DNA of 64,000 nucleotides from Laetmonice hystrix (lineage: Eukaryota), in the NCBI GenBank assembly GCA_965235115.1, contig OZ249436.1, positions 5,210,001 through 5,274,000 of the forward strand. Reading direction: 5' to 3'. Of the stretch, positions 107-59,100 are shown piece by piece (positions within the stretch are counted from its first letter, which is position 1; each line of letters starts with the position of its first letter). The notes below the pieces were generated by a model that searched no databases, was not told where the DNA came from, and saw nothing but the letters and a program-made list of their open reading frames with translations. A program made the translations under genes and the position numbers.

Positions 107-3100
107 TGTAAAAACGGTTAACTGGTTTCAGATAATGATCACGTGGAGGCGGAGGGTTAGCAAAGGGTAGACGGATCTGGTTGTTGGCAGGGTAATAACC
201 CGGGTCATCACCCGTCCCATCGTAACTGTCGTTAGTGGCCGCTAGGAGGCCATCCTCAAACCTCCTCAGAGCGTCAGTCCACGACTTGGCCGGACCGTAC
301 ATTAACGTTCCGTCGATAAAGGACGAGATCTCATTGATCTACAAAAGATGATAGGTCCACGTGGTTATTGAATAGAAATACACGTGTGTAAGTGAGGAAA
401 AGTGACACGGTACAAGGGGTATAGTAAGATATATGCAGTTCCAGCAAAAAACCTCTTCTGACGTTTCTTCATTACGAAATTAGAAACGTGTGTACTCAAT
501 TGAGTAACATAACTATCCTTAAAGTCTATATTTCAAACAATCTCTGATCTCCTCGCATGACGAAAACTGTTCTCCTTTATGTGAGCTACCTGTTGTCTTG
601 GGTTGTTGGGAGAGAAGCCAGTCCTCTGATCGTAGCGGGACCGGAGCAGTGGCAATTCCTTGCCGCCTACATCCTCCTGGTCATAGAGAGGGTGCCCACG
701 TGGAATCTTGATGTTGAAGTATTCAGGCGGGCACCCTGGACGTTGGGCATCGAGAACCTCCTCCACTACTTGCTGACCTGGCAAGGTCAAGCACCAATAC
801 GAGATGTTCATGTCATCATTAAAATTGAGGTATAGGGCCTACTACTTGCTGACCTGGCAAGATCAAGCACCAATAGGAGATGTTCATGTCATCATTAAAA
901 TTGAGGTATAGGGCTTATGGGGGCCTACCGTGACCGCAGTCTTTCAAGGCAGAAAATAGTAGGCCTATTGACCACAATATTTATATCAATGTTATATGTA
1001 CGGTAAATTTGTTACCCTTGAACCCAGTATTTGAAAAATTGAGATCTTGTTTGCGCTTGGCGTTCCTGTTTGGCTGGTCTATTCAGGACCGTACCCTATT
1101 CAGGGGACACTGCTTTAAGCTTGAGAAGAGGTTATGGTTTCCAAAGAAAGAATATCTGAACTTGTTTCTATATATCTGATAGATAGCCAGTTACTGTTAC
1201 ACACATAGATAGATACATAGATACTGTCACACACATAGATATCCAGTTACTGTCACACACTTACCAAAGAAAACAAGCAGCGCTGTTCTGCCCCTGTATG
1301 ATGGGAACCCCGTCGATCCATTCATGACACTTTCACTGATGGTGATCGGGTTTGGACGACTTGTTCCGGCTGGCTCGTACACACCATCACTGTACACAGG
1401 GGGTACCCGACGGTAGAGCTGTGTCTCTGCATCAAAGTTATACCCAACGTCTTCACAGTCAGCAAGGAAACAGGTCAGCACGATCATAAAGGATAGCTTG
1501 TTGTAAATCTGATGTTGTATTAAACATAGGCGCCCGAACATATTCAGAGTTTGGGGACCAACTATATCCAATGTGCCCGAGGGGACGAAGCCGAAAGATA
1601 TACTTGCAGGGTTACTCCGATGACCAGTCAAAGCCCACCCTCTCCGCATACAGCTTTACAGCTGGGAGGGCCTTGTTAACAATCTTTGTGATCGGCCATT
1701 CAGTTTGATAGGCATCAATGTATATTATATGGGTCCCACTTTAGCTTCCCTATAGCAGGGACTGGCGCTCACCTGAAGCACCCCAGTCTGGGTGAGCAAA
1801 GTTGTTGAAATATCCATCATATGGACGGTCTTCGATGTATTCATGGTGCTGACCTACAATATACAATATACAACATTAATTCACATGAGTCCCGGAGGAA
1901 CCTGAGCCTGCAACAGATAGTGCCTTTGTTACCCTTCAAAACGGCGTAAAATTAGGCCAAATCCCATATTATATATAGCAAGAGGAACAGCAACTCCAGA
2001 AAATATAGTTCATAGGAGCCAACGAGTTTTCCTATTACGCATTGGCTTATAGTAAGGACAAATAGGCCATTAAATATTATTGAAATAAGCTGACAAAAGT
2101 GGAGTTCAGTCGAGGGTAAGTCTTGGCTGTTCCCTTGACAGAGACAAGGGTAACCTAGGTGAGCTGACGCCTGCTATGAGGGAACCCCTGGACTGCAAGG
2201 CCCAGGTATAGCTTAGATCTTCGGGTTTAGAGGCTAGAGCACTCGGGCTAGTGGGGTAAAGGACCATTGCAAGCAGTCACGCGAAATTGTATAAATATAT
2301 AGGCTTAAAACGCTGCAGCCGATAACCGCTGCCACAGCCTCAATCTGGACTTTGTAATGTTACATAATAATATATAACACAACAAATATATGGACCTATA
2401 TGACAGGGGCGGCTGTTATAAAGTCTGCCCAAGCGGCAGCGTGACAACCAAGTGACGACCTCAATGTTCAGCAGCGTGCTGAAGATTGCTCTCTGGACGC
2501 TCGACAGGGTGAGCAATATGAATAATCTTCCTGTCTACTTCCAGTGGAAACACCATTTTAAATTACACTGTTATGTAAGCATCTTGTGGCACTTCCCTTT
2601 GCCTTTGTTTTTCTCACGAATCGGGAAGCCAGTATGATCGTGTGAAACTAGTCTTTGTTTCCGCGCTGACCACAGAATACAGGTAGGGCCTATAGTGGGT
2701 GTTGAGTGTAGGCCTATTGTAGAAGCAACAAGTTACGCACTGTCAGTGTAGCTTGTCGACAAGACGTTGGCCTCGCCCAAGATCCAGCGGAGCTTAACAA
2801 CGGAAACTGAGGGGGGAATCCCGACTGGTCGAGATAACTGGACCGTCTCGGGTTGCTCCTGACTTCAAGGGGTTCCTCATTGTGCCCAGCTCGCCTGCTT
2901 TCGGTCGACTCTACATTACTGTGAATTCTTCAGATCGGTTGATAGCAGGCAGGAAAGCAGACAGGAAAGATGCTCCCGAGTATGATTCGTAGTACACAAT
3001 GACCAGGAAATAGTGATTTAGGCCTACACTGAGTACAAATCGGTGCCCCCACAGTGTGTATTTTGATGACACTACCCGGTATATAAGTCCCGCACACAAT

Positions 3101-6100
3101 GAGGAAATATTATTTTATTATTTTATCCTTGTATACATGGCTATGATGGTCAGGCAACTTATCTTCCAAGTGGCACCATGCAGTCTGAAGTAGGCCACAC
3201 TTCAACATGGCTAAGCTTTAGTGGATCACACTTTACAGGCGATTCATTGATGTTTACAGTGTGGGGTATCGTGGGGTCCATTCCACCTGGCAAGCCGTCA
3301 ACTGGTCCTTTGACATGGCAGAGTTTTACCGGCCTCTATTCAATCTCTAGTGGTACCAGCACGGAATGTGCCCATCTCAGACATACTAACCTCCTGATAT
3401 AGACCAGGCCCCAGTTTTTAGTTTGCAAACCGAGTCTTAAGATTCAAATCTTAAGTCTGAACTCTTGTTTCAGAGATTCTGATTGGTCCTTCAAATGAAG
3501 TCAGCCAATGAGGGACCATAACACAAGTCAGTCTTAAAACTCCAGTCTTAAGATTGGTAAAATGACGAACTAAAAACCGGGCCCAGGGTCGGGTCCAGGA
3601 GTTTGGTAAATAGGGACGGGGGTGGGGGGTGGATTCAGGGGTAGAAAGGAGGAGGGGGACGTTCACCATGGTCAATTCAGAAAGTTCTATGGGGGAACAA
3701 GAAAAATTGGTTGCCAAGGAGGGTTCAAACCCCCTGCCCCCTCCCGATCCGTCAGTGTAGACGACACGAACCTCCTTATATCACGAATCCCACCTGCTAT
3801 TTTATCACCACATTGGGATAGTTATAAAATAGACTATCCTTTATGAAGTGTATCATAATATTGTCTCTTGGATTATAGAGCTTACATATACATGTAGTGG
3901 GAAAAATGCAATGCTCAATGAATTTAAAAAGCTATAGGGCCGACCGACTGGACTCTAGCGGGGGAGGGGTGATTGTTTCAGCCGCAGGTTCCTGTGGGGA
4001 AGACCCATTGGCTGAGGGAAGGAAGTGCATCTACCGTCGTTACGGTACATAAATTGAATTTTGACAATTGAGGAAATCGAAACTCATATGAACTACCGCC
4101 TTCTAAACGAGTCGACCTCGATTTTCTCTCGTGTGAGACGAGGCTTCCCTGGATGGTTTCATCTAGTTGATTACCGTACAACGGTAAGACCAACAACACA
4201 AACCTTACAACGGTAAGACCAACAACACAAACCGTACAACGGTAAGACCAACAACACAAACCGTACAACGGTAAGACCAACAACACAAACCGTACAATGG
4301 TAAGACCAACAACACAAACCTTACAACGGTAAGACCAAAAACACAAACCTTACAACGGTAAGACCAACAACACAAACCTTACAACGGTAAGACCAACAAC
4401 ACAAACCGTACAACGGTAAGACCAACAACACAAACCTTACAACGGTAAGACCAACAACACAAACCTTACAACGGTAAGACCAACAACACAAACCTTACAA
4501 CGGTAAGACCAACAACACAAACCGTACAACGGTAAGACCAACAACACAAACCTTACAACGGTAAGACCAACAACACAAACCTTACAACGGTAAGGCCAAC
4601 AACACAAACCTTACAGAGGTACAGGAGAATCATCCAGTCGAGCTGAGATAGGCCCACACTAACTGGAGCACGTCTCGATCGCAACACTGACCCTATCAAT
4701 GGAGGGCTCTATATGGCCGGTAGGCTACAGTGGGGATGGGAGAGGCTTAGAGGTCATTCCCTCCATCTATTCTCCCCCGTTACAAAATCGTATCTGACCA
4801 TTGGTAATTGGACCATTGGATTCGCCTCCTGCTGTTTACATTACGTTTACTGTTGCTGGTCTCTGCCATCTAACAGCCGTCCTGTCCTGTCTTCAAGCTT
4901 CAATGATTTTTTCGATTAGATTCCTGACCACATACAATTCATACAAATCAGCGTAACGAGGTGTGTAGTTTGTAAGGTGAAATGGAAGACCAGGATTTGC
5001 TTTGTAGTCACGTTGTTCCCCTTTGTTTACTTCAACTACATGTATGTATAGAACCCCTCCTTTTTCTAAAGTCCTAGATCCGCGCGCCTCTGGAAAGGCT
5101 AAAATCGTATGAATCGGCCAAAAGGTTTTCTGTTTGCGGACGGAGGAACCATGCCAACTGATGTTTGCAAGGTCTGCACATAAAGCAACTGCATATAGGG
5201 GAGTGCCGCTGCTACCTTGTCGTGAAAATAGTCCCGCTTCTCTTCACTCCCGGCCTAGCAGAGACAGACGATTACAGCTTGCAAGGCCGTGCCTATACAC
5301 GACGCTGGCATATAAGGTTAATTCAACTTTTCTGGAGGATTCATGTGAAGAATGGTAATCGGAAGAGTTTGCCAGTTATGTCATGAAGAATTATAGCGTG
5401 CGAATCACAACTGTGTCCCTTGGCAGCAAAACAACCATACCGCCATGACTCGGTCGGACTTCGATGTAACCGGCATTCTTAGACACTTTTATTAACAAAG
5501 ACCAGCATTCTTAGACACTTTTATTGACAAAGACCCTGAAGCCATTTTCGTTTCAGACGTAGAATCGTAATCATTTGACTTCTATATGCCTGAACAATGG
5601 GCAGATATGATGAAATAGTCTGATATGATTTGTTAGAATAGGCTGGATCCCCTTTTCTCCCGATTTTAAAGGTAGGATGTCATGGCATAAAATTGTGAAA
5701 ATGTTGTGATTGGTTCATTGGCCTCGGTTAAGTTCATTCAAAAAGGTCGGTTGGTCGTTGAAATGTTCGAGAGAACGTTATTAGGCCGTTATAGATACGT
5801 GCACACTAATTTACACGAAATATGGAATTTGGACGTATATATTAAAATTCACTTTAAATATCGCTTTCCTACGAAACCAAGTATAATCTAACCTGTGGTA
5901 AACCTAAAGGCCTTACTTCCAGGCCATTGTGTACAGCCTACTTCTCTTACTATCTTTAAAAGGGGGAACGCGGCGTCTAGCTTTTGGTTATTTCATAACG
6001 TCCGTAGTTCCTGGCGACGTTACGTCGTTACAGGGATCTGATAGAACTGTGGCGTCCATATTATCTCCAAGAAACCTCTGCGGTCTGGCATCGTATCTAT

Positions 6101-8123
6101 CGCATGGTTCTTACTTCATTCACCTCCGCGGCTGGGACGCCAAAGTTACCATGCCTCGGCCAAGTTTGCACAATTGAGTACAAGCGAGTGCCTGCGCGGT
6201 TTGAAGAACGCCAGGAAACATGATTGATGCTAAGGGAATTTTCGTGTAGGTTTGGTTATAAATAGTATTGAATAATTCTTTTTGGGAGCTTTGCCCTGGC
6301 TGAGCAGGCCGAGAATGTGCCTGCCTGTCCATTAAATAGTAAAGTTAAGAAGAATCAACGTCACGTTTCTTTTTCTGACTGGTAATAGAAGAAATCGTTT
6401 CAGTAATCTTTGCCTTTGGAAATGTCATTGAGCATGGTCATACGGGGTGAACCTAAAGAAAAACTACTGGCAGTGTGGCCGAACCTTACTGCCAACTCCT
6501 CATAAATGCACAGGTGTGTTGTGTCAAAGTGGTTGCACAAACACCATTCCAGGTCCCTTGGAACCGATTACAAACATTTCAGGGCTGGCCGCAGGCGTCC
6601 GCCCTACTGACGGGTTAGATCCATAGTTGTAGAAACGATTGGGATGGAGAGACCATACATTATGCCAAGTTCCCTTGTCTCCGTCCAACTTTCATGGAAA
6701 GTTAGGAATGGTATATTACATATGGGCCGTGGGGTGTCTCCGTTCTGACTAGGGAGAAACATAATGGTTTCTTGACAAATCAATTAAGGTTCTTTATATT
6801 GTTCTTTGCCACCAAAATGGTAGGCCTGCTTTTTTATAACACCTAGTCGAGACTGACTATCTATCAAGTGCACACTTCTAAGGACGTTTTCATGAATGAC
6901 ATGGGTACTGTCGAGCACGCCTGTACAATTGCTGTCTGAGGTCATGTCATTCGGATCCCTCTGGTCTTTCACGACGGTTCCGTGTATTGCCCGCCGGTCT
7001 CAGTGTCGGTCTTGGTGCTTGGTTATACGTGCTTAGAATATTATGTTTGGTTTTTCTGTTTTCCAGAAGAACAGAACCATGAAACAAGTCCCATTACGGC
7101 GGCGAGCCCCCCCCCCCTCCCCACCCGACACGGAGTCCCCGGCCTCCAGCAACTCCAGAGTTCCTGTCAAACACACATTTTACTATTGTTTTCTAAAGGG
7201 AATCATTGCCGTCTGAACTGCATGGTATGTAACGGGACCTGTATACGGCCGACTGATCACAATAGTGTCAAACTGAAGGCTCTCTGCTTTTTGTTGTTCC
7301 TGCTTTACTTAGACATGACCCTAATTTTTGTGATTTGGATGGGGGCCATGTAACACCACAACTACCATACTTTACTCTCATTACTTTTTGTAGTTCCTTT
7401 TGTTCTCCTTTCAACGATGATTGATGTAGAACTACGAGAGGTAATAATTCTACGACGTGATTTTCTTGTTCTGTCTTTCTGCATCTCTGCGCACCTAGAG
7501 TACTGACATGATCCACACCAAGGCGCTGTTGTAAGGGTGGGTTGCTCCTCCAAAACGATGAATTATAGTTGTATAACGACAGACAGCGGTGTCTTTGTGC
7601 GTCTTCACTCTGCAGTGTTGTGGTAGAGTGGCGGTGTAGCCTATGTTTTTGGGCTTGGCTTTACAGGGATGTAGCAATATAAATCTATTAGGCCTACTTG
7701 GCTCTGATACACAGTCACTCGACAACGAGTAGCAGATGTAGGCATATTGAAGTAAATACTGTACTATTATAACAGTAGCGTATGAAAAGGGATCCAGGGG
7801 CCAATTAAAAAAGTAGGGGGCACAGTAGGCTCCCATGTCCCCCAAATATTAAGCTCTTTGGCCAATTAAAAATAATGGGTACATTTGAATACTTTTCACC
7901 AACATTATAGAACTAGACGTAATGTGTTTCCTATCCTGTTAGTTTGTGCTGTTTTGATCACCATTTTTTGCTTACCTGACTGACTGATCCCCCCCAACTG
8001 GAGATAGCTTCCTACGCCTCTGTATAAGGACCACATTTATCCCGTCTAAACTTAAATCTGATTGAGTTGTCTAAGCTTCTTGCAAGTGCATCATCACAGG
8101 GCTTCCTTCCCCCTGTCTCGATT

Positions 8124-8184
<61 letters not shown>

Positions 8185-11100
8185 CTGTTTCTCTCAATGG
8201 TCTATCTCTCGCTGTCTATCTCTCCGTCTGTCTCTGTCTCTCTGTGTCTATTTTTGTCTCTATCTGTCTCTCTCTGTCGCTCTCTATGTCTTTGTCTCTG
8301 TCTGTCTGTCTGTCGTAGGAAAACTCGAGGTATAGGGCCCTAGAGACCTCCTGGCACTCTCCACCCTTACCTGAGCGACTGTATACGGCTATGAGGCTGA
8401 TCGGTCTCCATGCCAATATCGCATGAACGAGCACTTAGAGGTAGGCATATAGGTCTATACATGGATACATTCTGCCACTAGACGCGTCCCAAAGCGACCT
8501 TGCTGGGGTCACCGCTGGCTGTGACAGTGTCATCTGCTTAAATTTTGACGTGAACATGTGAAGAGGAACATAGCAAGACAGCGCGATTTTTCTAACTCTG
8601 CCCAGCAATATCGGAAAGCATGTCGGTAACAGCTGTGTCGTGTCGGTAACAGCTGTGTCGTGTTGTCTTTGACAGCTGTGTCGTGTCGGTAACAGCTGTG
8701 TCGTGTAATGTATAATCAGTGGGGGATCCTGGATTTTGATAAGGGGGGGACCAGGATTTTGATAAGGGGGGCCCACCATTTCTTTTTACATTTTGACTGT
8801 CCTAATGCATCTTCATAAAAAAAGAAGGAAAACCCAAGGGGGGCCTGGGGCCCCTAGGCTCCACTGGATCCCCCCACTGATAATGTATCCGGTTTGATCA
8901 GTGTAGCCTATGTCCGGAGCTGGTGTAGGCCTAGATCTATACTTGGGAGGCAGACAGAGCGGAATAATATAGGCTACCTGCAAAACTTTTGAAAAGGTAT
9001 GGACTGCAGAAATAGAAGTTTGCCACTTTGCTAACAAAAATACTATAAGCCTATTGCATGCTTTGATGCTACGTCTCATGTCGAAATAAGCGAGCTTCTG
9101 CAGTCATCCCCCTTATGTTTGGTTTGAACCTTTGAAGCAGAAAAAGGAAAAATAGCGGAGTGTTGCAACCCCCTTAACCCCCCCCCCCCCCGATCCGCCC
9201 ACTGGAGTCTTGAGGGTATAAGGCCAACTGAAAAAATATGGGGCAATTAGGTTTATGAATAGTATAAATGTAAACTATTATTTGTACTTTTTCAGAAATG
9301 GCGTTTCAAAATGCTAAACGTAGCCCTGATATGATTAAAATGATTGACAGACCGCACAGAAAGGCAGTAAGGGGGTTTAGCGCACATGGACATTGTGTAC
9401 CATGCAGTATTAATATAGTAGTAGCCTGAATATCATAGCAGGGAACAGTGGCGGCCTAGAGTAGACCTATAGTCTGTCGCCAGGCTGGAGTGAGCGGCTT
9501 AGTTACGGAACCTCTTGCACGATAGCAGTGGAGAGTGACCTATTGCGTGACCATGCCATCAATCCTGTCGGAGAAATAACGCACGGCAGCTAGGACTTTT
9601 AGAACGAGAACAGGTTCCGGAGAAGCTAACGTCGACGGCTAAACTCAAGGATCATACAATAGAATAGATTTTACTCAAGTCTCTCTAGTCATAACTGGGT
9701 GTTGAGCCCATGTGTCGTTCCTGACTTATCCCAATAGTTCCTGCCGTGATCCATGCCTCGCCCACACTCATGTCTACCTTCCAATCGATGTGCTTCATTC
9801 ATTATTGATAGAGCTCACCATTGTTGTTGCCCGGAATCTATGGCACCTTGGCCAGCCGTTTCGTTTCCTGTTATTGATAGAGCTCACCATTGTTGTTGCC
9901 CGGAATCTATGGCACCTTGGCCAGCGCCGTTCCGTTTCCTGTTATTGATAGAGCTCACCATTGTTGTTGCCCGGAATCTATGGCACCTTGGCCAGCCGTT
10001 TCGTTTCCTGTTATTGATAGAGCTCACCATTGTTGTTGCCCGGAATCTATGGCACCTTGGCTAGCCGTTTCGTTTCCTGTTATTGATAGAGCTCACCATT
10101 GTTGTTGCCCGGAATCTATGGCACCTTGGCTAGCCGTTTCGTTTCCTGTTATTGATAGAGCTCACCATTGTTGTTGCCCGGAATCTATGGCACCTTGGCC
10201 AGCCGTTTCGTTTCCTGTTATTGATAGAGCTCACCATTGTTGTTGCCCGGAATCTATGGCACCTTGGCCAGCCGTTTCGTTTCCTGTTATTGATAGAGCT
10301 CACCATTGTTGTTGCCCGGAATCTATGGCACCTTGGCTAGCCGTTTCGTTTCCTGTTATTGATAGAGCTCACCATTGTTGTTGCCCGGAATCTATGGCAC
10401 CTTGGCCAGCCGTTTCGTTTCCTGTTATTGATAGAGCTCACCATTGTTGTTGCCCGGAATCTATGGCACCTTGGCCAGCCGTTTCGTTTCCTGTTATTGA
10501 TAGAGCTCACCATTGTTGTTGCCCGGAATCTATGGCACCTTGGCCAGCCGTTTCGTTTCCTGTTATTGATAGAGCTCACCATTGTTGTTGCCCGGAATCT
10601 ATGGCACCTTGGCCAGCCGTTTCGTTTCCTGTTATTGATAGAGCTCACCATTGTTGTTGCCCGGAATCTATGGCACCTTGGCCAGCCGTTTCGTTTCCTG
10701 TTATTGATAGAGCTCACCATTGTTGTTGCCCGGAATCTATGGCACCTTGGCCAGCCGTTTCGTTTCCTGTTATTGATAGAGCTCACCATTGTTGTTGCTC
10801 GGAATCTATGGCACCTTGGCCAGCGCCGTTTCGTTCCGGATGCTATAATAACACGCCTGCAGTTTAATAGTACTCCTGGCCTGCAGTCGCTGAGTTATAG
10901 TGCTGTGATATATGTTCTTTGGCTTGTTTGTTTGTGGGTTTTTTCTTCCTTGCAGATTTCTCTGTCTGTTTGTCTCTGCGTTAGATCTTACTTAACGTTT
11001 TAAAACATTCCATTAGGACCACGAGAAACCTGCTTCGACAACCTCAAACATTCCTGACAGCTTTCGACGGTTGGGTTATTTAAAAGGGCACAAATTGGAA

Positions 11101-15052: not shown

Positions 15053-15217
15053 CATATTACCAGTAACTTTGTACTGTAGTGTACATATTACCAGTAACTT
15101 TGTACTGTAGTGTACATATTACCAGTAACTTTGTACTGTAGTGTACATATTACCAGTAACTTTGTACTGTACAGTACATATTACCAGTAACTTTGTACTG
15201 TACTGTACATATTACCA
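15053..15217. repeat. 31-bp minisatellite, about 5 copies
   Basis: Unit CATATTACCAGTAACTTTGTACTGTAGTGTA. Confidence 0.9.
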
Positions 15218-18915: not shown

Positions 18916-21900
18916 GAGTCTGTACGTCGGTCAATGTTCGGGTTGTTCCGGAAGTGGCCGTTCCCGACCCTATATCCGCCTCTACCTACTGCAGTCACCA
19001 CTGATGTACTGGTGGTCGGGACGGCTTATGGCCTCCTTTGTCTGTTCATCTCCTTCATCCTCATCCTGCCAGGGGTCAGACACCGCCAGGTGACGTTTTT
19101 AGACCGTGTATAAAACGAGATTTAGATCTTTTACCATTACCAAGAAATAAAGTTATACGCAATTTATTCAGAAAAACACGGCATATATTTTCAAACTTCT
19201 CCTTCCAGGACCGCTTTCTCCCAAATTCACAAAGTATACGTTTGTCAAATTATCGATATCAAGATTCTGAAAAATGATCAAATCAACGCCATGAGGCATG
19301 ACCAGCAGGGTGGGTCAATCAGCGGTATAGATTGAATGGTTGTAGCTAATTGCAGTTTATGTCAGCAACAAGAAATAAACAAATGACCCAGAAATTATAA
19401 GTTACGAGTGGGATGCTGAATTAATCATCTTAATTGACAGAGGCGGAATTCGGCTATCCAACTTATGCTGGGCATGTTCATATTGGCCTCCATATTACGT
19501 GAGTTGAAAGCTCTGATTCATTCTGCCACCATTGCTGTGGTAAGGTTATAATGCAGTTGTTTTACAGTGCAGAGATCTGTAGATCCATACGTGTTGGGGT
19601 GATATAATACAAAGTATGACTATGTACTACAAATGTAGGTCTATTAGTAAACCCGTGGCTCCGGGTTCCGGATTTCATTTTGATCAAAGTTTTCATTGTG
19701 TCGTCACAGTGTGTAACTTTGGCCAGGACTGGGAGGTGGCTTCTCTGGTGACGAGGACTCAGTATAAGGCTGGAGTCAAGGGTATCATCAGGGCAAGTAT
19801 CAAGGTCAAGATCGGACTCAGGTCTGTCAACATTACTCTGACAGGTACGTTGACGTCCTACCAATATCAATATCCCAGGTGTAAAAAAACACAATAACGG
19901 TTTGAGTTCAAAAAGGGTTAGAGTTAGGGTTAGAGTTAGGGATAGCATTGGTTATTAACTCTTAGAGATTTACGGTTAGTTAGGGATAAGGATAGTGATA
20001 TTCCAACACAGTTGAGAGCAGCTAGGCTAACTGTCACGTGCGTCCTACTCGGCATTTGATTGGCCGAAATGGCAAACCTGTCTGGAGGAAAAGAAATTCG
20101 CAGCCCGGGTAGGCCTAATTCACAATCATTTTACTATACCAAATGGCCATTATGTTTAGGGCAAGTTTTGCCCTAAAGGTGGAGATGCCGTCACGATGTC
20201 AACTTCCTCACTCCCCCACTCGGCATGTTTTCGCTGAAGGCTACATGACATTTTTAGTGACCACAGCCAAGGGTCACCATTCTAGGCTACTACCACCATC
20301 TGTGGTGTATCCTTGTGTCCTCCAGGTATACCCCGAACTGTGTGGTTTGGCGCTGGTATCGCGGAGACCATTGATTACAACGAGCGTTTCTCGTGGGACA
20401 ACGAGGGATGGGTCCAGGGGCAGCTTGGGTTTGGTCCAGGAGGTAGGTACACATTCTGTCTACCTCCAGGGGCAGACGTTTGGCATAAATAGAGGTCATG
20501 AACCTATAAGGTTACCTCATGTAAGGCTATGCATACATCGTGTTTTGATTCATTTGGGTTCTTCAAAGTGCCAGGGGACCATTGCTCTTTAAGTATAGAA
20601 GTTAACAAAAGTGTTGTTTTTCGTTCTTTTGATCGTTTTCTAAACGTTTTAGCTGGCAGATTCAACCAGGAGTACCGAGCTGGTCAGGTGCGCGGTCTGC
20701 CCTACCCGATCCTGTGGATCGCCGAGTACCTAACGGTAGACGGGGAGGGGCTGCGATGGGGGCGTTTCTACCGCCAGGCCGGGTACTTCACCCACGCCCT
20801 ACTCTGGTCAGCTTCCATTGAGGGTGTAATAGAGAAAAATATCCGTTCTAATGATGGACTGCTCAGGCCCGGAGAGTTGGCTGCCCCTAAATAAGACTGA
20901 GGAAATGGTTAAATTCACAATTTCTGTGTGTAACAAATGTATTTTGTGCAGGTTTTGTGATTAATCCCCATGACACGTTTGAAGAGAAAGACGTTAAAGA
21001 CGTTACAGTGGTATGTCCTATAGTGGGCATACATGTTCCTCACTGAATTTCTGTGCATGGATTTCTCCAGGCTGGCTCTGCCGCTGTGGCTACTGTCTTT
21101 GGTGCTCCTCAACTTGGTTATTTCCTACGGCGTCGCCTTCTGCCTGCTGACCGGTTCTGACCTGCTGCTGGCTGCGACTGTCTACTCCCTCACTCGTAAC
21201 CCGGTATCATTGGTCATCCCGTTCGAGGACGGCAGGCTTGAGTTCCACTGGGGATGGTGCTTCTGGCTCTGTATCTCTGCAGGTCTCGTGTCCTCATTCT
21301 GTAATATCATGGTTCGAAACTATAGTAGAAACTTGAACCTTATTGAATATAGGTATATGATTGATAGCTTCCTTATCAATCTCTAAGTCTAAGATTCCTA
21401 TGTTAAGTTACCCTCCCCCTTGAGTCACTCACCCCTTCACTCAAGCAATGATGCATGGTACGGTGCGACTGTATATTTATCAGTTCACTCTTGGTGCGTA
21501 GGGCAGAATATGTCATAGATTTGGACCGCAAAGAATTATGTATATATCACACCATTTTATTGTACATAAGCGATAAGATGTAATACCGATGCCGTGGTGT
21601 TCTTTCCTGCAGGTTTGCTGTGTGTTTTCCTGCAGGTTTGCTGTGTGTTTTCCTGCAGGTTTGCTGTGTGTTTTCGTCGGATGTCTCGTCATGGTCCTTG
21701 ACCACTGGAACGCCGACAAAGTGGCCGGCTTCTTCGGGAAAGACGTTTGTGACGAGGCGCAGGAACTTTACGTCAGTGAGTTCAACCTGAGGCTTCTTCA
21801 CGTCATATATGTTTACAGGAAGGTTTGGTCCGTGGGACTTCAGCATCAGGTTTAATAATAATCATTAAAAGAAATCCTTTTTTAGGTACGGCGGACCTGC

Positions 21901-34183: not shown

Positions 34184-37100
34184 TTAGCTGGGCTTGTGCC
34201 GCTTCCAATATCGTTTAACGTCATCGTGACCCACTCGAGTAACAACCATGAGACGTCTGCGTGGGTTTTCAAACACTAACACACCGAGATCCTGAAATAA
34301 AGTGATAATATAACACTTGTGTCATCAAATAAAATTGTATAATGAGGGTCAAAAGAAAATAAATTTGTTATACCATGTACCCCAGATACTTACTCTCAAA
34401 ATGGTTATAACTGGCCCAACAATTTGCAACGAGACAAAAGGTGTAGGCAGTATACGACAGGTTGAGAGGCTAGTATGTTTGGTACATCCGTATGTACATC
34501 ATTTAGAAAGGCAGCCCTATACCAATCAACACAGAATCAATCATATCCTCAAGGCATACCTTTGCGTAATTTCGAAGCATTTCAAAGTCGTTATCTGAGA
34601 GGAACTGGTCATAAAGAACACCCTCCGTGAACTTGAATCGGTCACGCTCCAGCTCCCACAGCCGGATCTGATCGCTGACGGTGGGGGGAAGTAAAGGTTG
34701 CTATGCAATAAAAAAAGAAGGAAATCACTTGTACAGTCCAATTATTGTCATGGCATGGTTTGTAGATAACATCTTCATGGAATTTGGTGGCAAGAAGCCA
34801 AACTTAATCCTAATCCAAGAAACCTAGCTGCTACACCCAGCCCCTAGACCTGTCCAAGAGACCTAGCCCTAACCTTGTCCCTAATCCTAACTGCTACACC
34901 CAGCCCTAGACCTGTCCAAGAGACCTAGCCCTGACCCTAACACTAATCCCAGCCCCTAGAACTGTACAAGAAACCTATCCATAACCTTGTCCCTAATCCT
35001 AACTGCTACACCCAGCCCTAGACCTGTCCAAGAAACCTAGCCCTAACCTTGTCCCTAACCCTAATCCCAGCCCCTAGACCTGTCCAAGAAACCTAGCCCT
35101 AACCTTGTCCCTAATCCTAACTGCTACACCCAGCCCTAGACCTGTCCAAGAGACCTAGCCCTAACCTTGTCCCTAATCCTAACTGCTACACCCAGCCCCT
35201 AGACCTGTCCAAGAGACCTAGCCCTGACCCTAACACTAATCCCAGCCCCTAGACCTGTCCAAGAAACCCAGCCCTAACCTTGTCCCTAATCCTAACTGCT
35301 ACACCCAGCCCTAGACCTGTCCAAGAAACCTAGCCCTAACCTTGTCCCTAATCCTAACTGCAACACCCAGCCCTAGACCTGTCCAAGAAACCTAGCCCTA
35401 ATCTTGTCCCTAACCCTAATCCCAGCCCCTAGATCTGTCCAAGAAACCTGTCCCTAATCCTAACTGCCACACCCAGCCCTAGACCTGTCCAAGAAACCTA
35501 GCCCTAACCTTGTCCCTAACCCTAATCCCAACCCTAACCTTGTCCCTAACCCTAATCCCAACCCTAACCTTGTCCCTAACCCTAATCCCAACCCTAACCT
35601 TGTCCCTAACCCTAATAATCCCAGCCCCTAGACCTGTCCAAGATTTTTAGTCATTCCTACCTTATTCTTCATTTCAGGGTGTGCATAACTCCGGAGAAAG
35701 TGTATAATCTGCAGGAGAAATATAATGTGCTTGATCAGACAGAGATTAGGTAATGGCTCGTATTGAGGTTTCCCCCACTGAGCAATTAGTTTTGAGATTG
35801 GAACAACGATCGTTTCCTTCCAGTGGTCAGCGAATATCACTTTATGATGGGTGTCTGACGAACTACAAGATGTTAAAGGCTCAACAGTACAGCTAGATGT
35901 ATGAGACAAAAATTGGCATACATCTGAAGACGGCCACTGCAATGTAAACCTGCCCAGTATAAGTACTTACCTGTTCTGCCGTTATGCCCCGGGTTAATGC
36001 TTCTCTTACACTGGCCCGCGATATGTTGCAGACTATCATGTTGGGAAACCTGGAGTAATGGTTTACACCAAGTTTGGTCAAAATTCAATGGTGATTTCTT
36101 CAATACAATGCAATAATATCACCTCAGCAGACTTAACTGTATATAACAATCTAGACCTCCTGGAAGTAGAGTCCAGTATTGTGGGACATATAAACCTCCA
36201 CTACTGGCAACTCATAGAATCATGCAACATAGAAATTCCTTTTTACTGCAGTAGGTGAGAATAAAACTTACCTGTAGAGCAATTCACAAAATATCGATAG
36301 CAGTGCCACCTTCAGGGGTGAATCTGAAACAAATTGTCCAGGGAAAAGGGTTAATAATAATATTTTTACATTCTAATTCAGCTGGTAGGTTCTAAAGAAC
36401 GTTTAGTTGTATAATTATGCAGATATGCAGTTTATATTTTGGTTGCCACCGTCTTATTACTTTTATGGCAATGGCCTATATTAGGTACCTTTCACGGTAA
36501 CAATTTCTTTAAATGCCTCATAACATACCTAACGTGTAATAAATAAATATAGGGCCCCATTTAACCTGCACTGTAACCACCTACCCGTGTAGGCATACAG
36601 CCTAAAGTTTGTCTCCACGACAATAAATCCCTCCCCCTGATTGTACATGTTGGAGTTGGAAAGTCCTGAGGCGAGGTTGATTGTCAGACGGGTTGGGTAA
36701 AACCTCTGTGACTTTCTCTGTGTGGTCAAAGTCAGGGATATGAAAACCTAATCTTTGATATAATGGTGCAATAACAAGCATTCTTACCTTTTAGGGACGT
36801 TATAAGAAACCAAGAACTACAAGTCCAGTCTGGCCACCATATTACAGTATAAGGGTTACTTTGACAGTTGTAATGCCTGTCATATACTTTCTTTGACCAT
36901 TATAATAGAGGTAAGGAATAATAAACGTGATGCCTAGAAAAACTCTACATGTCTACGGTAGTAATCTGTGTTGTTATTGTTGACATATGAACCACCTTTC
37001 TCTGGTATGTCAGACCACACTCTCGGAGATGTTGAAGAAAACACAGCTGGGATTCAGTCATGCCCTCTGTTGAGTAATCCTGGAACAAACGTGGGGGAAA

Positions 37101-44005: not shown

Positions 44006-44102
<97 letters not shown>

Positions 44103-48775: not shown

Positions 48776-51700
48776 ATGGACAACTTATCGGAGGGGAGTT
48801 TACGTCAATTAATCTTCAATATTGCATTGGTTGTGATTCTTTTGCCAACAAGTCACACTAATGGTATGTATTAGTGCAAGGGTGAATGCCTCTTAACTGA
48901 ACTAATACGGGAAGTCCAAGGGTTCTACCACATGCAGTGGGCATGGGCGATAATATGCCATAAATACCGTCCTAAGTTTCGACTTAGGCCTAACGTTATT
49001 GCTGAAGCAGTAAATCATTCATTATGGAATATTATGGGTGCCAGTATACAAATAGATCTTGATAAAGTTTCCATGTTAATTTCAGATCATTTTTCATGAT
49101 AGCCATATTAGGTCTAGGCTATAATCTATATTATCAGGCCTGTGATGTTTCCGGTTTTTGCCAGATTTCCGGCTTTTTTAATTTTTGGGTCACCCTTATT
49201 GCCTTTTAACAGTTAAAGCGACAGTCAGTTCCTATGCTACAGCATAGGAACTGAAGTCTATAAATAGCACATCGACCGTTAGGATGGCCAGCCTATCGCA
49301 CAATGCTGAAGGACGAGACCGTCGCTTTAATACCGATGACCTGAGGCCGAGAGGATCAGAGATGACCAGAGATGACCCAAGAAAAATATCAACTGGAAGC
49401 ACTAATATTAAACCCTCAGTGATATTTTTCGCGGGTCATCTCGGGTCCTCTTGGTTCATCGGTATTCAGGGTTTTCCTTTCTTAATACCGAAGACCCGCT
49501 AGGACTAGTGGCCATGTCGGGTCACCGGTATTAGGGATGACCCCTTTTTTGTATCAAAAAGTTACCCCTCTGTGATTGGTGCAAATGCATTGAGATCTTA
49601 TAATTCATATGTAGGGGGTGGGGGTAAAGCTCTTCAAATTGGTCAAAACTCACCGGCCTATAGTTGTAAACTCAGGGAGGGAGCACCCCTCCCACACCCG
49701 CCTATAGTTGCACCACAAAATTCAGGCTTTTTTTCCTTCACCTGATCACACCCCTGTAATATAGTATATCTAAGGCTAAACTTGTCAGTTAGGACCATTT
49801 CTTCCATTTCTGCTGTTGTACTTTGTAGTTGTAGTCTACATGTAGTTGTATAACTTGTCCTTAGACTAAACTTGTAGACTGCCACTTGTGAAGTTGTTTC
49901 CTGTATTATGAATGCCCAGAGTGGAAATATCACTGTTAAAATAAATAAAGAGGGATGGCATGGAGGGATGTTGATAAACCTACTGGTCTGTCAAACAACT
50001 AAACACCAACTATCTTTCCAGGAAAAACAGTTTCTATGAAGATTGTTGAGGAACCATCTAGTTTTGGGTAAGTCGGCTGAAAGGAAATATTTACCTAAAA
50101 AGGACTGACTGGTTTTATATGAAATTTCCTGTATAGGATAAACTTATCAAAAACATACAAATACCACTCACAATGTTAGCTTGTGTATGTAGATTTGATA
50201 AATTGTTAGTTTATAACAATTACGGTTTTTTTTACTCTCATGCTGTTTAACCTGGTTCCAGCCAGTGTGGTAACTCTTACAAAATGGAGCAACCATCTTA
50301 GAATTCATATAGCATGCCAACTTGTTACTTGTGTGCTGATGTTTGGAAAAAGGCTAAACATATTTGTATTTTTGTGGCAATCAACTTGTGTAGTTCCAGT
50401 TTTATAAGCAATAGGAGTATGTAGTTCCTGTCTTCTGCTACATCCAGGATGAACAATGGTTACCAGGACCAAGTCCAGGTGGACAAGATAACGATGAGAG
50501 TACAGCCTTCTAATTTTTCGGGACCCCCTCACCTACGAGCTCTAGATAAGAGATGTTTTACAAAAATTGATGATGCGTAAGTTCACTATAATTCACTATA
50601 AAATATATCAAATCAAAGAAAATCTGCCTGCATAGTGGATATTTTTCTTAAACATTGTTTTATTTCAGCTACAAGTACGAATTTTGTCCATTTTCCAATG
50701 TGACTCAGCATGAGCAAAGTCTAAGGTGGAACCCATATAGTGGTGTGCTTGGGTAAGCATAAAATTTGTCTTTTGGACAATTCAAACATTTGGACTGACA
50801 GTCATTATGTCCAGATGTTGTGCTGAAAGGGTTAACTAGATTGTAATCTTAAGCAGTGACCTTTTCTGCATTTATAGACAACTCATATTTGAGGCAGATT
50901 TCGATGACTTAGCCTCTATTTTAGGCAATAAGTTAAACCTTTTATCACTAGAATTGTGAACCCATTGAGACAGAAATGAGCAGCAGCAATTATCTTGTTA
51001 TTGCAGTGTCTGGCAGGAATGGGAAGTTGAGAACAACACCTTTAAAGCCATGGTCATGCGTGAAGGGGACACCTGTGGCATGCTCCACAGGACAACCAAG
51101 GTAAACATATTTTACCATTTTTTATTGTGACATAAACAGCCGAGTTGACATTGCTAGAATTGATGTCCCTAGCTATGTTCTTGCAGGGTTACATTAAAGG
51201 TGATAATAAAAATGAGATGAAGACAGAGGCAGCTGAGCATTTTTGAGTATATTTAAGAATTTAATAGTATGTTATTTTAAGTTAACTCTATGACTGGTTT
51301 AGCCTAAAGTTTGACCCCAAAAAAGTTAATTCTTAAGGATTTGACTTATGGATTTTGATAGGTAGTTATGAAGTGTGGTGAACGAAACGAGATTGAGAAG
51401 GTGACAGAACCAAGCACCTGCAACTACCTGTTGGTGTTTAGAACTCCATATGTGTGCCATCCTCACGCTATGCTCGTCTACCCAGTCCTCACACCTCAAC
51501 AGCGCCACCTATGGGATATTTTGGAGGGGCAATGGGTGAATGAAGAACTAACTCAACAGGTGAAGATGCTATTATCATTATACAAGTACATGTGAATATT
51601 ACCTACTGCATTGGTAATACAGTCAAGGTCTAGTCTGGTTGTTATCTGAAAAAAAAACTCCAAACCAATGACAAATAACTCCATTGTCAACCTCTTCAAA

Positions 51701-52711: not shown

Positions 52712-55700
52712 AACTGATGAGAACCGGGAATTGACTCAACTTTCATTTGACAGAATAATGTTGATATAGTGCAATAGTAACTTTGCTTTGGTGATGTGTT
52801 GTACAAAAAGGTTAGAGTTGTTCCTCATTAGTTGGTCAGAACTCACTATATTTGCAGTATTTGGCAAAGGTACACTAAAAAAAAACATTCCTCATTTTTC
52901 CACTCACAAGAATGAGATTTTTGCTTTTTGCCACAAATGCTATGAAAGAGTTTCGATGTGTGATTGGGGAATTAATGCTGACTTCCTTTTCCAGCTTGAT
53001 CTGCTTAGTGTGTTGTGGAATGGTATGGCATTATTGATCGGATTGTTTTAATGATACATTGGTCTACAGTCAACTTTGCATTGATAAAACTAATCGGGCC
53101 TGGCAAATTTCATAGAGAACAAGTTGACTTCAATACTCTTGGCCTTTCATTAATATCTCTATACAATGGAATGTAGAAAAAGAATTACTAATACTATACA
53201 CCGTTTATAACAGTGATGAGAAGCAAGCAGAGTGTCCAAACTATAGACCTTCCCAAATAGGGATTTAATTTGTAGGGGAAATCTTTTAAATCTGGAGGTC
53301 CTAAAACACCATTTCCAGTACTCCCAGACGAATATTTCTGTCAAAAAAACTCCGTAAATTGATCGTCATTTTAGGTTTGTTTCCTATAAAAATATAAAAA
53401 AGGTTATTGCAATAAGATAAGACTTCACCTGGCTATCCAAGTTTATTTCATGTCCTTGAATGACAAGTATTTATGGGAATTTGACAAAAATATCTTGCTG
53501 GGCAAGAGCAGATCTTCAAAATCGGGATGTATCCTATCCCAACCACTATTGTGTCGGGATTCGGAATTTTAAAGCAAACCGGGGAAATATCAACAAAATC
53601 GGGATGGTTGGACACTCTGAGCAAGTGTCGGAGAAGCATAGCTTTACTGCAAACAAAAATTGACCCTTGATACTGGGCATTCTGTCTCCCAAATTGGCTG
53701 TACAAATCAGCTGGCTTCCCGTATGAATACGGCAATTCAGTAACTGGTTAATAAGTCCTTAAACATAATATTCAAATGACTGCTGAGATATATTTTCCAA
53801 ACTAGACATCGTTGCATTTAGTTTCTAAGTTGTTACTTGTGAAACTGAAGGTCGGCAGACTTTTATCCCTGTGGGACGAAGGACGATAAAATTCTGCTAG
53901 CTTTACCATTAACTGTTAGTGTTACCCTAATCACGTGTGACCATGCTTGACCTCTTCCTTAGGTTAATCACCCTAATGTGACCATCACTGACCAGTGGCA
54001 AACACCTAATGTAAGTCTCTCACCCTTTGAAGGATGACTTCAAATGAAAACAATCTTCTCATGATAAAACAACGGGTACCCCGGTAATTCATTTATCACT
54101 GGCGAGATTTCTAATTCTGAAGCTATTACCACCAGGATTGGAAATACCCATTGCTAATCATGCAGAGGATCTGCTACCAGTTGTTCATCAAGCCAGTGTT
54201 TCCTGACGAAGTCATCCTTTATGTAGGACGAGTTTGGAAAAAGGGAAAAAAAATATCCAAAACATTGTTGTTCCAACAAGCAAATTATACAAATGCCTTT
54301 AGAAATATTTTGTAGGCGGCTATTCGCACCGGAAACCTCCATCACATACGGTTACCGTTATATTTTCTGCCTCCTTTTCATGATCCATGATCACCGTGTC
54401 TGAATTCAATATTTATAACCTGGGTCTGTTTGACATCTTCAAGGCAACTTTTTTCCTGGACTCGTCCGTGAATCTAGTAGTGCACTTGGTGTATGGGTTG
54501 ATGGTTTTATGGTGTAAAGGTATACACACTTGGTCACCGGGTTTGAATTTCAAATGCTCAGTAAAGGCGTGAGCATGACTGAGATAAGGATTAGATCTGC
54601 ATACTGTTGCACATAAACATAGTTGTAGATAATGCATCATGTTTAACATATATACATGTACTGGTATTACCTTAGGATATGTGTTTAACTTTTAGGTTCC
54701 GGATACTGTGACGATGTATATATATCATTGTTCTTAAGTACATAAAGGTAGTGACATTATAAATAGCAAACTCACATTGAAGTTATGGCATACAGGGAAT
54801 TATTCCCTTATTATACGCCTCATAAGTTGAAAAAAAAGAATGTAAAAAATTTAGAATTTTTTTAACAAATAGGGACTCAGTATATGTATTTTGACTAAAA
54901 TGATGTTTGTGAATGCTTAATGGTGAATAGAGTTGCCACGTGTCATTGTAAGGTCTCTTAGTCAACTTATAACGTATTCTGTTTCAGGCAAACTGCGGAA
55001 AGCCAAAAAGGGCACCAATGATTTCGCCATTGACTACCGGTACCGTGACTACTACGGCGACTACTAGATTAGATCACCAATAATAGCCTAAAATGTACCA
55101 CTCCACACTCTCCACACTCCAGAACTGGAGCCTAATTTCTTTTCATGAACATCTCGATCCTCTTTCAAAATGTATGAAATCGCTGGCTCTCAGAACACGG
55201 AAAATATATTTACTGATAATCTGTTTTGAAAGCTGCCGAGCACTTTGGTAAAACAGACACCATTCAAAATACGTAATGGCTCTGGCAACATCAACAGTTA
55301 TTAATGCAGAATTATTGAAACATCATATTCCCAGTGGAAAGTTTTTGTTTTTGTACATATTTGAATTTCAATAATCACTGCAGTGAGAATGTGTTGAAAG
55401 CATTAATGTGATACAGATGTGGTTAGGACTGCCTCAGTATTGAACTGTTATGTATGTGAAGTCTAAGTACTCGTATTTATTTGGTCACAACATCCTCTAT
55501 CTCTATGGCTAGTGACTACGGTAATAACTCGGAGGGAATCAGGCGGGTGTACATGTTTATGGTTTACCGGGTGCGTCAGTGTAACCTGGTACAATTCACC
55601 ATTGGAATGGAGGCAATCGGTAAAACGGGGCCAGGTCTTTCAGGCCGTTTCATTTGGGAGACTAGGGCCATGTATGTTGGGCCTGCTTGGGCTTAAATGG

Positions 55701-56146: not shown

Positions 56147-59100
56147 TCAACTCTTCTTGGTTGGGGTAACTGTGTTTTTCTTCCACGGACTTTTAGTAAT
56201 GTATTCAGATGAAGTTTTCATAGGACTCCCAGTGGACATCTTCGTTGGGCTATCCATTTCCTCATTGACTGAAACAGTATTATAATATATACAGTATCAC
56301 TTCAAGTCCTATACGTGACACTCTGGTCATCTTGGAGGCTTATCGTGTCAGTTGCACAGGAGTAAGTAGGAGTACCAAGTCATTATGAGGTTACATTTTG
56401 TATGTTAATCGCATGTATTACATAGAGAAAGAAAAACGTTTACATTGCATAATATGGTAACCCCAAAACACATTTTGCTAATTTCTTTCTCGTGAAGATC
56501 AGGCCATTTGTACAAGACTCACCTGCACAGGTTTGCACTTTACGTTTGTTGGCTGCAAGAAATGGCTCATGAAAAACAGAGTGGAGACGTTTAGCCTGAA
56601 AAATAAAACACAATTCATGTGTAAAAAAAACCCTTCACTACATTGTAAGTATGCGGGTTAAGATACCAGGTAAATATTTTTTTAGTTTTTTATATGCCTA
56701 CATTTGCCCTAACTCTAAAAAATCAGCAAAATTAACTGAGTTTTCATTTGCATGCATAAAGGCCACTGACCTTCTGTGGTCCAAGACCTGAGCACAATGC
56801 CAGGTCCTCCTCGCTGGCCTCGATCATCTGATCCACTGACTGAAGTGTAATAACATTTATGGGTGGATATAATGTGGCTGAATTAGGACTTTTCTATGCT
56901 TTAGAACATGATACCCAGCAAATGTTGCAATGTGAACTACAATACTTACGTTCCTAAATTAATCAAAGGCCAAAACATGCGAAATGCTACACTTGAGGCA
57001 CTTAAAGCAGACATTTAGCAAAAGTGAAAAATTATTTGCTACATGAAATTGTGTTAATGGTATATCAAAGTACATCCCTATATACAATCTAATACAATTT
57101 AGGTACCACTACTCAACTTCTCCCATCCTTTTGATTGTTAAACTAGATGTTTACTCACACCAAAAGCTGTGAGCAGGGTCATGGCATCTGTTTTGTTCAC
57201 TCTCCTCACGGTGGTCAGGCAGTCTGTTAGCTAAACCAAAGACAGAGGGAACGTTATCTAATGCCGAGTTGTATGCAGAGCTGTTCGAATTACTCCTGTT
57301 GACTGACATCAAAATGAAAATGAGATGGATTTAAAAATATGACATCCTGGAGAAATATTGCTTGGCAAGATGACTTACCATGTCAATAAATATTTCCTGA
57401 ATAATCAGTGACCAATGTCTCACCTTGGACAGGTAGGTAAGGGTTTTTATGTCTCACCTGGGACAGGTAGGTAACGGTTTTTGTCTCACCTGGGACAGGT
57501 AGGTAAGGGTTTTTATGTCTTACCTGGGACAGGTAGGTAATGGTTTTTATGTCTCACCTGGGACAGGTAGGTAAGGGTATTTATGTCTTACCTGGGACAG
57601 GTAGGGAAGGGTTTTTATGTCTTACCTGGGACGGGTAGGGAAGGGTTTTTATGTCTCACCTGGGACAGGTAGGTTAGAGTTTTTTATGTCTCACCTTGGA
57701 CAGGTAGGGAAGGGTTTTTATGTCTCACCTGGGACAGGTAGGGAAGGGTTTTTATGTCTCACCTGGGACAGGTAGGTTAGAGTTTTTTATGTCTCACCTG
57801 GGACAGGTAGGTAAGGGTTTTTATGTCTTACCTGGGACAGGTAGGTTAGAGTTTTTTATGTCTCACCTGGGACAGGTAGGTAAGGGTTTTTATGTCTTAC
57901 CTGGGACAGGTAGTTAGGGTCAGTCTTCTCCATGATGAGTTCGGGAGGCTTGTTCTCATATGACTTGTAAGTTTCTAGGTAACGTCCAGCCTCTTCTGGT
58001 CTGATCAATAAAATATCATCACCTTAATTCATCCTTTGTTTAAACAGAGTTTCGGGTACAGTCTCTATATAGATTGGAGAACATTCATACAAGAAGTGAA
58101 CTGGAGACACTGAAGTAATTATTTGGTTCACCGTCTTACGTCCAGGCTAGTACAAGAGTGCAGTCAGCCAAAATGCATATTTTCCCAAGTTCTTTCAGCG
58201 CATGGTGTGGATCCTTCTATTAAATACAGAAAGAAAACAGCAAGCATTAGGTACCTAGAATTCTCTCTATTCAAGTCTATTGTAACACATACAGTATGGT
58301 GTTAGATTCCCTTTTCTCGTTTTCATAATTTCAATTATTTCATGCTTCAAACTTCACAATGATGGTCTGAGGCTAGAAATTTTAGAATTTTGGGAATATG
58401 TGCTGGCAATGAAGCAGAAAGCATCAACCAACAATTACTCACCGTGTCAACTTGGGCCAATAATACTCTAAGCTGGTAACTGTGCGCCAGTTGTTTCAAT
58501 CTCTCATGGATATAATTTGGGTTGAGGGCATGATACCGTAGGCTGCAACAAACATTTTAAACTTTACCTACGAGACAAATCATGTTATACTAACAAATCT
58601 ATTTCAAACTATTGCACAAGGAACTCAATAGTAATACATACCCTGGTAAATGAGAAACAGCTCTAAAATAGTTCTCTGTTTGCATTATTATTGAAATTGA
58701 CCTATTTTTAAAAGGTATGCTTTCACTAAGTTTTTGTAGCGTAGAAGGAGACTCACCTGAGGTACAGTGCACATGTAGTCTGACCCATGACATAATCTGG
58801 GACAATATCACCAAACTCCCAAGGAACATTTCTCACATGCTTCAAAATTGGATTGCCTCGCTGACAAAGATAAAATATTGAAACTTCATCATTAAGTTCA
58901 TGACTGATTAAATAAACAAAACAATTTTTTTTAAACAATTACTTTTTGAAGGTGCATTTATAACTCCCTTGCTTAGTAACAAACCACTGTGCTGCCCTGT
59001 CATATGCGAGAGATATTGTGAGAAACATGGTGTTGAGCCACACAAAGCTGGTTACAACAGCAGTGGCGAATCCGGGGGGCAAGGGTCAGGAGCCCCCTTT

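Follow-up and report, generated by a model that had tools for sequence, protein, structure and literature searches.

Why should splice junctions be copied in tandem? The question is raised by three arrays in the window (the whole 64-kb stretch of DNA analysed here), in the genes DUOX, DUOXA and ERCC1. An earlier note had claimed that each of them copies a real CAG|GT exon boundary, and both TRF and a junction-word scan agree on this: repetition of junction words was found at only these 3 of the 86 splice sites, with the same outcome at three settings. The note counted three of six genes; the three stand, but one of the six is essentially a single open reading frame, which makes the proportion three of five multi-exon genes. 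We consider it probable that the three arrays are mirage minisatellites, that is, chance duplications spanning exon edges, with no new intron. The features are collected in Table 1.

Table 1. Arrays and neighbouring exons in the window (positions in the window).
Feature	Positions	Strand	Remarks
DUOX peroxidase-domain exon, downstream of duplicated acceptor	590..777	-	DUOX1 match, E 4e-13
DUOX acceptor duplication	765..914	-	TRF: 76 x2.0; exons align gap-free to DUOX1
DUOX upstream exon	1265..1426	-	donor at 1264, phase 1, Gly codon
DUOXA exon 6	21071..21282	+	donor CAG|GTCTCG, weakest among 43 donors
DUOXA acceptor triplication	21603..21675	+	TRF: 23 x3.2
DUOXA exon 7, in-frame form	21659..21775	+	junction gap-free in 15/16 aligned relatives
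GTF2H4 intron 12 TTAGGG-rich satellite	34823..35616	-	wholly intronic; left out of junction-copy pattern
Following ERCC1 exon	57159..57230	-	human ERCC1 235-258
ERCC1 donor minisatellite	57415..57920	-	TRF: 34 x14.9
ERCC1 exon, its 3' end seeding the array	57901..58000	-	human ERCC1 202-233

The DUOX unit joins 62 nt of intron to 14 nt of exon across CAG|GT, and its two copies differ at 3 of 76 positions. The native exon starts at 777, with a spacing that is unchanged in 87 of the 88 relatives with flanking motifs, while the extra acceptor (at 853) retains its CAG and leads to stops; use of the GTs within the exonic piece would, by inspection, give exons of 8 or 11 nt, out of frame. In DUOXA the unit is shorter (10 nt of intron and 13 nt of exon, again meeting at CAG|GT), the copies are 100% identical and the extra acceptors likewise retain CAG. 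Of the candidate exon starts at 21613, 21636 and 21659, only the last is in frame; the one aligned relative (of 16) that does not confirm this junction stops short of it. A search with DUOXA exon 5 returned 18 proteins, and the search for exon 6 homologues matched none of 1098 candidates. The sole branch-point-like word in DUOXA precedes the first of the acceptors, which is out of frame, so that plain 3' scanning would pick the wrong one; this counts against the mirage reading.

ERCC1 carries 15 donors, namely the native GT at 57900 and those of 14 further units, each 32-35 nt long and the last with its GT at 57423, the copied boundary being CAG|GT here too. All 14 extra donors rank 28-38 of 43 by donor score, and the intronic copies are closer to one another than to the exon copy. 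Template switching was rejected as the origin of the unit, since intermediate variants account for it by single steps. In all three genes the conserved protein results only from the copy on the exon side, and all the extra sites lead to frameshifts or stops.

Other arrays were considered and set aside. The GTF2H4 satellite had been drawn into the pattern by the earlier note, and it does contain GGACAGGT 12 times, with the first copy lying some 20 nt inside intron 12; its unit, however, takes nothing from an exon and its GGACAG|GT has a lower score than any of the 43 true donors, so it was rejected as a fourth case and is not a mirage. Two candidates for non-AG|GT mirages at exons missing from the annotation were not counted, a 29-mer at 4173 (plus strand, donor-like ACG|GT) and a 69-mer at 9802 (minus strand, donor-like ATG|GT), whose scores were reached in 7% and 24% of random windows, respectively; the candidate exons at these arrays gave no convincing Pfam or Atlas match. 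In the DUOXA genes of other animals, 55 arrays were found in 72 loci (271 kb), with no clear copy of a junction among them at the resolution of the alignments, and 3 of the 55 sit near alignment ends.

How far do the three cases exceed chance? Intersecting TRF arrays with junctions gave 3 overlaps among 20-39 arrays, where 1.4-1.7 would be expected (P 0.16-0.25, window-wide). Junction overlap is thus near chance, with no excess shown window-wide, and the mutational bias at junctions that the earlier note had proposed is not shown by these counts. The AG|GT share among the copied junctions is borderline, or mildly unusual: AG|GT at 3 of 3 junctions has P 0.053 unstratified and 0.016 by site type, and CAG|GT at 3 of 3 has P 0.008, all post hoc and all, like every statistic given here, from one 64-kb window. 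Some observations run against a plain-chance view, namely the AG|GT and CAG|GT at 3 of 3 junctions, the presence of a CCT...AG|G inverted repeat at each of them, and an overlap with P 0.04-0.10 within annotated gene spans (a mask that excludes the array-rich DUOX 5' region, 1854-18912).

The anatomy of the arrays is that of mirages: in DUOX, DUOXA and ERCC1 (and not in GTF2H4) head-to-tail units lie across a real boundary, and the extra copies keep their AG or GT signals. Tandem duplications are frequent in this genome, which is rich in repeats and has short introns (in the window, median 263 nt; shortest annotated 92 nt among 42), so that some units span an exon edge by accident. Such a duplication always spares one exon-adjacent site, either the last acceptor or the first donor, and additional copies merely extend the old intron. 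The cell would mainly use the exon-side site, occasional use of the others giving early stops and, presumably, decay of the mis-spliced RNA, while slippage or unequal exchange would alter copy number and homogenise the intronic copies, as in ERCC1.

Mirages are known in amphioxus, in Adh3, the globins BflGb6 and BflGb9, troponin C and PGBD5 (PMC3087553, PMC3902484). They copy both boundary types, RT-PCR suggests normal splicing, intron gain is proposed as an outcome, and how they arise is called unclear (PMC3087553). As in amphioxus, the units described here cross a 5' or a 3' boundary and have sizes in or beside the Adh3 range (10-72 bp), and the ERCC1 intronic copies are homogenised as in BflGb6. 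Unlike amphioxus, the host is a probable lophotrochozoan (the named DUOXA matches listed are annelid and chiton), and its arrays are known from DNA sequence only, whereas normal splicing and length polymorphism are reported for those of amphioxus. The ERCC1 array is also built like the human donor VNTRs of F7 IVS7 (37 bp), CBS IVS13, IFI 6-16, LMNB2 and PDGF (PMC1557585), with the first unit across the exon-intron border and the donor reiterated within the intron. The passages on these VNTRs deal with donor arrays only, while DUOX and DUOXA are acceptor cases. The F7 array repeats UGG/gugggu, and of these identical donors the first alone is used (PMC1557585). Unlike that of ERCC1, this donor is not AG|GT, which shows that arrays of other donors can be tolerated as well.

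The claim that selection tolerates only AGGT copies is therefore too strong, given the F7 array and the intact exon-adjacent site that a junction copy always leaves. A weaker AG|GT preference, mainly at acceptors, may exist. It would follow from a selective filter, an explanation that we hold to be unlikely, in which AG|GT junction copies persist because a mis-spliced transcript can be re-spliced (recursively, in a ratchet-like manner) to the right mRNA, most strongly at acceptors, since scanning favours the first AG. Both copied acceptors are AG|GT, against 7 of the 43 acceptors in the window, as is the one copied in amphioxus BflGb6. By eye, CAG|GT also stands at the repeated donor of two PGBD5 arrays in lancelets, which brings the pooled count of AG|GT cases to 6 of 7 (P 0.011 with window base rates, for hand-picked cases from different genomes). 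The ERCC1 copies have strong donor and marginal acceptor scores, and by these scores re-splicing there is plausible. In human tandem repeats, Duan et al. 2024 report an 8.4-fold enrichment of introns at dual-specific sites and propose tolerance through such sites. Dual-specific AGGT sites in repeats such as those of UBC and VCX3A are described as making expansions less harmful, as these can be spliced out (PMC10809524), a selective idea shared with the earlier note; those repeats lie within exons and what is spliced out is a new intron, whereas the present arrays stand at an existing junction and their dual use is putative. Against such a filter, the donors regenerated in DUOX and DUOXA score poorly (fourth and third lowest of 43), the removable pieces (76 nt; 46 or 23 nt) are below the shortest annotated intron, a branch-like word is missing from the DUOXA piece, F7 tolerates a non-AG donor array, and the cases are three, seen post hoc. 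The idea of splicing repeats out and that of intron gain are both already published. The amphioxus mirage passages (PMC3087553, PMC3902484) hold no test of AG|GT bias, and our literature search, with subscription papers outside its scope, found no genome-wide test of it in junction-spanning minisatellites.

A combined reading, which seems to us quite unlikely, takes the copied acceptors of this genome to be a non-random set, namely AG|GT sites with a fold-back pyrimidine tract (CCT...AGG), where a hairpin would seed the duplication and AG|GT would permit ratchet re-trimming of 46-76 nt. Very unlikely, in our estimate, is a local mutational bias on its own, with a CCT-containing pyrimidine run folding onto AG|G(T), the hairpin promoting slippage and the AG|GT excess a by-product. 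It accords with the stems at the DUOX and ERCC1 junctions, the two longest (6 bp) of the 86 sites, with an 8-bp palindrome in DUOXA, with stem-length P values of 0.001-0.075 across 24 window and loop settings, and with a CCT...AGG motif that occurs at 7 of 86 sites, all three copied junctions among them. The motif, however, was spotted post hoc, and with windows of 20-25 nt the signal in folding energy weakens (P 0.06-0.46). By eye, the motif is absent from the PGBD5 junctions and from one of the two BflGb6 haplotypes, and the authors of the F7 study detected no special structure there (PMC1557585). That hairpins cause arrays in general was rejected, as the 16 non-junction arrays show no excess.

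The earlier note also saw in the arrays an ongoing route to new introns. Judging from their positions, which are common to human genes or other animals, the three host introns are old. The ERCC1 position is that of human ERCC1 c.702+1; those of DUOXA and DUOX we take to be human DUOXA2 c.769+5 and DUOX2 c.326-20. In DUOXA, 21 of 26 motif rows from 72 related loci, judged by eye, show a GT or GC donor after that Gly base. DUOXA intron 6, whose ends share 8 nt, was considered as a young intron and rejected, its position being common to human DUOXA2 and the related loci. The arrays do resemble intron gain by AGGT duplication in being tandem duplications with AGGT, and potato RdRp copies an intron 3' end and exon start, as DUOX does. 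The classic model, however, requires an exonic AGGT, copied within an exon at a new intron position, and here, beyond the junction, the exonic parts of the units contain none. The AG|GT that was copied is simply the pre-existing junction, so that precise re-splicing would leave a zero-base exon and hence no intron gained. In potato RdRp a cryptic donor lies within the copied exon; here there is no exon between two introns, and no donor that would leave an in-frame new exon is found in the acceptor pieces. Nothing in the three arrays, as we read them, shows the birth of a new intron. That one is underway, the copied exon piece becoming a micro-exon or a split exon (as in the Rogers, Hellsten, potato RdRp and amphioxus mirage models), is highly improbable: the route is proposed for mirages and documented in potato RdRp for an acceptor duplication, but the exonic parts are just 13-14 nt (acceptors) or ~20 nt (donor), and every extra site gives a frameshift or stop.

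For DUOXA, the array was also followed in read data from three DNA runs (one sample, probably the assembly source). Contigs from 3 of 3 runs, those of both haplotypes included, end at 21632 and start again at 21646-21673, which fits at least three copies in a 31-mer graph, and their listed joints include no skip of 23 or 46 nt. An assembly artefact, with short perfect copies produced by sequencing or consensus errors, is hardly credible, despite the identity of the DUOXA copies and the single sample, given these breaks where at least three copies predict them and the substitutions present in DUOX and ERCC1 copies.

As mirages, the arrays are three clean added examples of a known repeat type, and DUOXA is a useful natural experiment, with three identical acceptors 23 nt apart, of which the third alone is in frame, and a likely branch point ahead of them all. 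Two leads emerge, the excess of AG|GT at copied acceptors and the short CCT...AGG inverted repeat present at each copied junction; either bias at copied acceptors, if true genome-wide, would bear on the origin of mirages and on splice-out tolerance in repeat survival. Should hairpin seeding and ratchet re-trimming prove true together, the sequence itself would indicate which junctions turn into mirages, and recursive splicing in short introns would gain a natural test system.

The DUOX, DUOXA and ERCC1 arrays (an acceptor duplication, an acceptor triplication and a donor minisatellite, respectively) belong to a known kind, the "mirage" minisatellites, in which head-to-tail units span a real intron-exon boundary. 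In amphioxus, mirages repeat the 5′ or 3′ boundary of an exon in tandem and have homogenised inner copies; RT-PCR pointed to normal splicing there, and an intron-gain model was already proposed (PMC3087553); PGBD5 and troponin C are further amphioxus examples (PMC3902484). Passages of PMC10078293 gave nothing specific.

Hand annotation of the sequence gave five multi-exon genes (DUOX, DUOXA, GTF2H4, GNPTG and ERCC1), whose identities were checked against solved structures or Pfam. It comprises 43 donors and 43 acceptors, with a median intron length of 263 nt; it lacks the first exon of DUOX, which could not be placed, and is less secure for the 3′ exons of DUOXA. The junction word recurs locally at three of these 86 sites, under three settings: DUOX 777, DUOXA 21659 and ERCC1 57901, all reading CAG|GT. 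The junction-duplication pattern of the earlier note holds for these three genes. The GTF2H4 intron 12 satellite, which the note set beside them, was rejected as a fourth case: it starts about 20 nt into the intron, is rich in TTAGGG and contains no copied exon sequence, and its GGACAG|GT has a lower donor score than all 43 real donors. The palindrome TAGGCCTA occurs 30 times in the whole window, versus about 1 expected from base composition alone.

Features of the window (positions in nt)
Feature	Position	Strand	Unit (bp) × copies	Basis or remark
DUOX, 5′ part of gene		-		hand annotation
DUOX array	765-914		76 × 2	TRF
Array in DUOX intron	1178-1260			begins 4 nt into intron past donor; donor uncopied
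Array	4173-4615		29 × 15	donor-like site ACG|GTAAGA on +
Candidate DUOX signal-peptide exon	8371-8432	-		ends in phase 1; no in-frame ATG
Array	9802-10835		69 × 15	donor-like site ATG|GTGAGC on -
Deletion, DUOXA intron 5	20855-20897			43 nt; on second haplotype
DUOXA intron 6	21283-21658			weakest donor of 43; same 8 bases across both ends
DUOXA array	21603-21675		23 × 3.2	TRF
Element in last DUOXA intron	22722-26126			terminal inverted repeats with 13 bases in common; exon-like splice signals; read depth about ten-fold over part compared; looks like a DNA transposon
GTF2H4 satellite	34823-35616			TRF
Tandem duplication	43400-44631		623	both copies start at (AG)n microsatellite; unit missed by TRF at period 500
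Mab-21/nucleotidyltransferase-family ORF	45863-47308	+		481 aa
Array in GNPTG intron	50582-50601			begins 5 nt into intron past donor; donor uncopied
Exon-like piece, last GNPTG intron	53963-54010	+		48 nt; inclusion gives a stop right past the junction
ERCC1 array	57415-57920		34 × 14.9	TRF

In all three genes, the conserved protein is predicted from sequence to come from the exon-side copy only. Acceptor 777 of DUOX joins human DUOX1 positions 102 and 104 gap-free, with the same spacing across the junction in 87 of the 88 relatives having flanking motifs, and the reading frame from acceptor 853 meets stops. The third DUOXA acceptor gives 524 aa, and 15 of 16 relatives align across its junction without a gap; the first and second give 313 and 350 aa and, because these short forms retain a hydrophobic stretch past the junction, their leaky use may be mild in effect. 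With the first ERCC1 donor, the protein runs on from human residue 234 to 235; of the 14 later donors, 13 hit a stop before the next exon is complete and one shifts the frame.

The DUOXA copies were checked over 17900-25600 on DNA contigs from three runs of a single sample, which is probably the source; the search that gave these runs listed none of RNA. In each run the contigs stop at 21632 and restart at 21646-21673, those carrying second-haplotype differences break at the same position, and no skip of 23 or 46 nt at the array is among the contig differences listed for the three runs. On our reading, such breaks need at least three copies, assuming 31-mer graphs. The DUOX copies and the ERCC1 copies differ among themselves by substitutions. 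Mismatches between contigs and window reach a few percent of bases.

The best reading of the origin of these arrays is a passive one, in which frequent tandem duplication in short introns would now and then catch an exon edge, one intact splice site would remain at the exon and the extra copies would turn into intron. In human F7, a donor VNTR (IVS7, 37 bp), the first of the identical donor copies is used, and this donor is non-AG (PMC1557585). The passive reading is less tidy for acceptors than for donors; the sole branch-like word near the DUOXA array lies 29 nt upstream of the first acceptor. Re-splicing at a copied AG|GT could rescue a wrong DUOXA acceptor choice. However, the donors regenerated in DUOX and DUOXA are the fourth and third lowest of 43 in rank, and re-splicing would have to excise 76, 46 or 23 nt, compared with 92 nt for the shortest annotated intron. 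The ERCC1 copies would be better candidates for dual use as donor and acceptor. Tolerance of tandem repeats by splice-out has already been stated (PMC10809524). A new lead, to which we give low weight, ties the copying to a short inverted repeat, with CCT pairing with AGG, within which all three junctions lie; the two longest stems among the 86 sites are those of DUOX and ERCC1 (stem length P 0.001-0.075, 24 settings; folding energy P 0.06-0.46, 20-25 nt), and the CCT...AGG motif is found at 7 sites, but this repeat is, by eye, mostly missing from the published cases. No hairpin excess was found at 16 other arrays of the window.

The junction bias proposed in the earlier note did not emerge window-wide: when each array is reduced to a single unit and compared with uniform placement (nine settings), 3 of 20-39 arrays span a junction versus 1.43-1.74 expected (P 0.16-0.25). 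Within annotated gene spans the figures are 3 of 6-15 versus 0.84-1.17 (P 0.036-0.10), a test flattered by a mask that leaves out the DUOX 5′ region and the arrays there. AG|GT is present at 7 of 43 annotated acceptors and 26 of 43 donors; its presence at three of three copied junctions (P 0.053 unstratified, 0.016 by site type), like that of CAG|GT (P 0.008), concerns a pattern chosen post hoc. Since CAG is the acceptor consensus and AG|GT the donor consensus, the informative part is the two acceptors with GT after them. Pooling with published cases, namely F7, the amphioxus BflGb6 acceptor (AG|GT) and two PGBD5 donors (CAG|GT; amphioxus junctions by eye), gives AG|GT in 6 of 7 (P 0.011 on the window's base rates), a small and hand-picked set. 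The arrays at 4173-4615 and 9802-10835 would count as non-AG|GT mirages if they copied exons missing from the annotation; gene support was found at neither.

As for the suggested route to new introns, a model of intron gain by AGGT duplication has been reviewed (PMC3443670, PMC4974935), and no intron gain is shown at the three arrays. Around each junction, AGGT occurs solely at the junction and is absent from the exonic parts of the units. Because a cut between two AGGT copies leaves zero exon bases, the same single mRNA junction results. The host introns are all old. Named human variants place introns at the corresponding positions (ERCC1 c.702+1, DUOXA2 c.769+5, DUOX2 c.326-20), the match being probable for the latter two. 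In a comparison of 72 loci related to DUOXA, 26 rows (several near-identical) match the exon-6 end motif, of which 21 have a donor GT or GC past the same Gly base and five read through like transcripts (by eye). Several related loci have a GC donor at this position.

Among the papers listed by our literature searches, none tests junction-spanning minisatellites for AG|GT bias across a genome. An AG|GT bias at copied acceptors, or a hairpin bias, is possible, and either merits a count across the genome.
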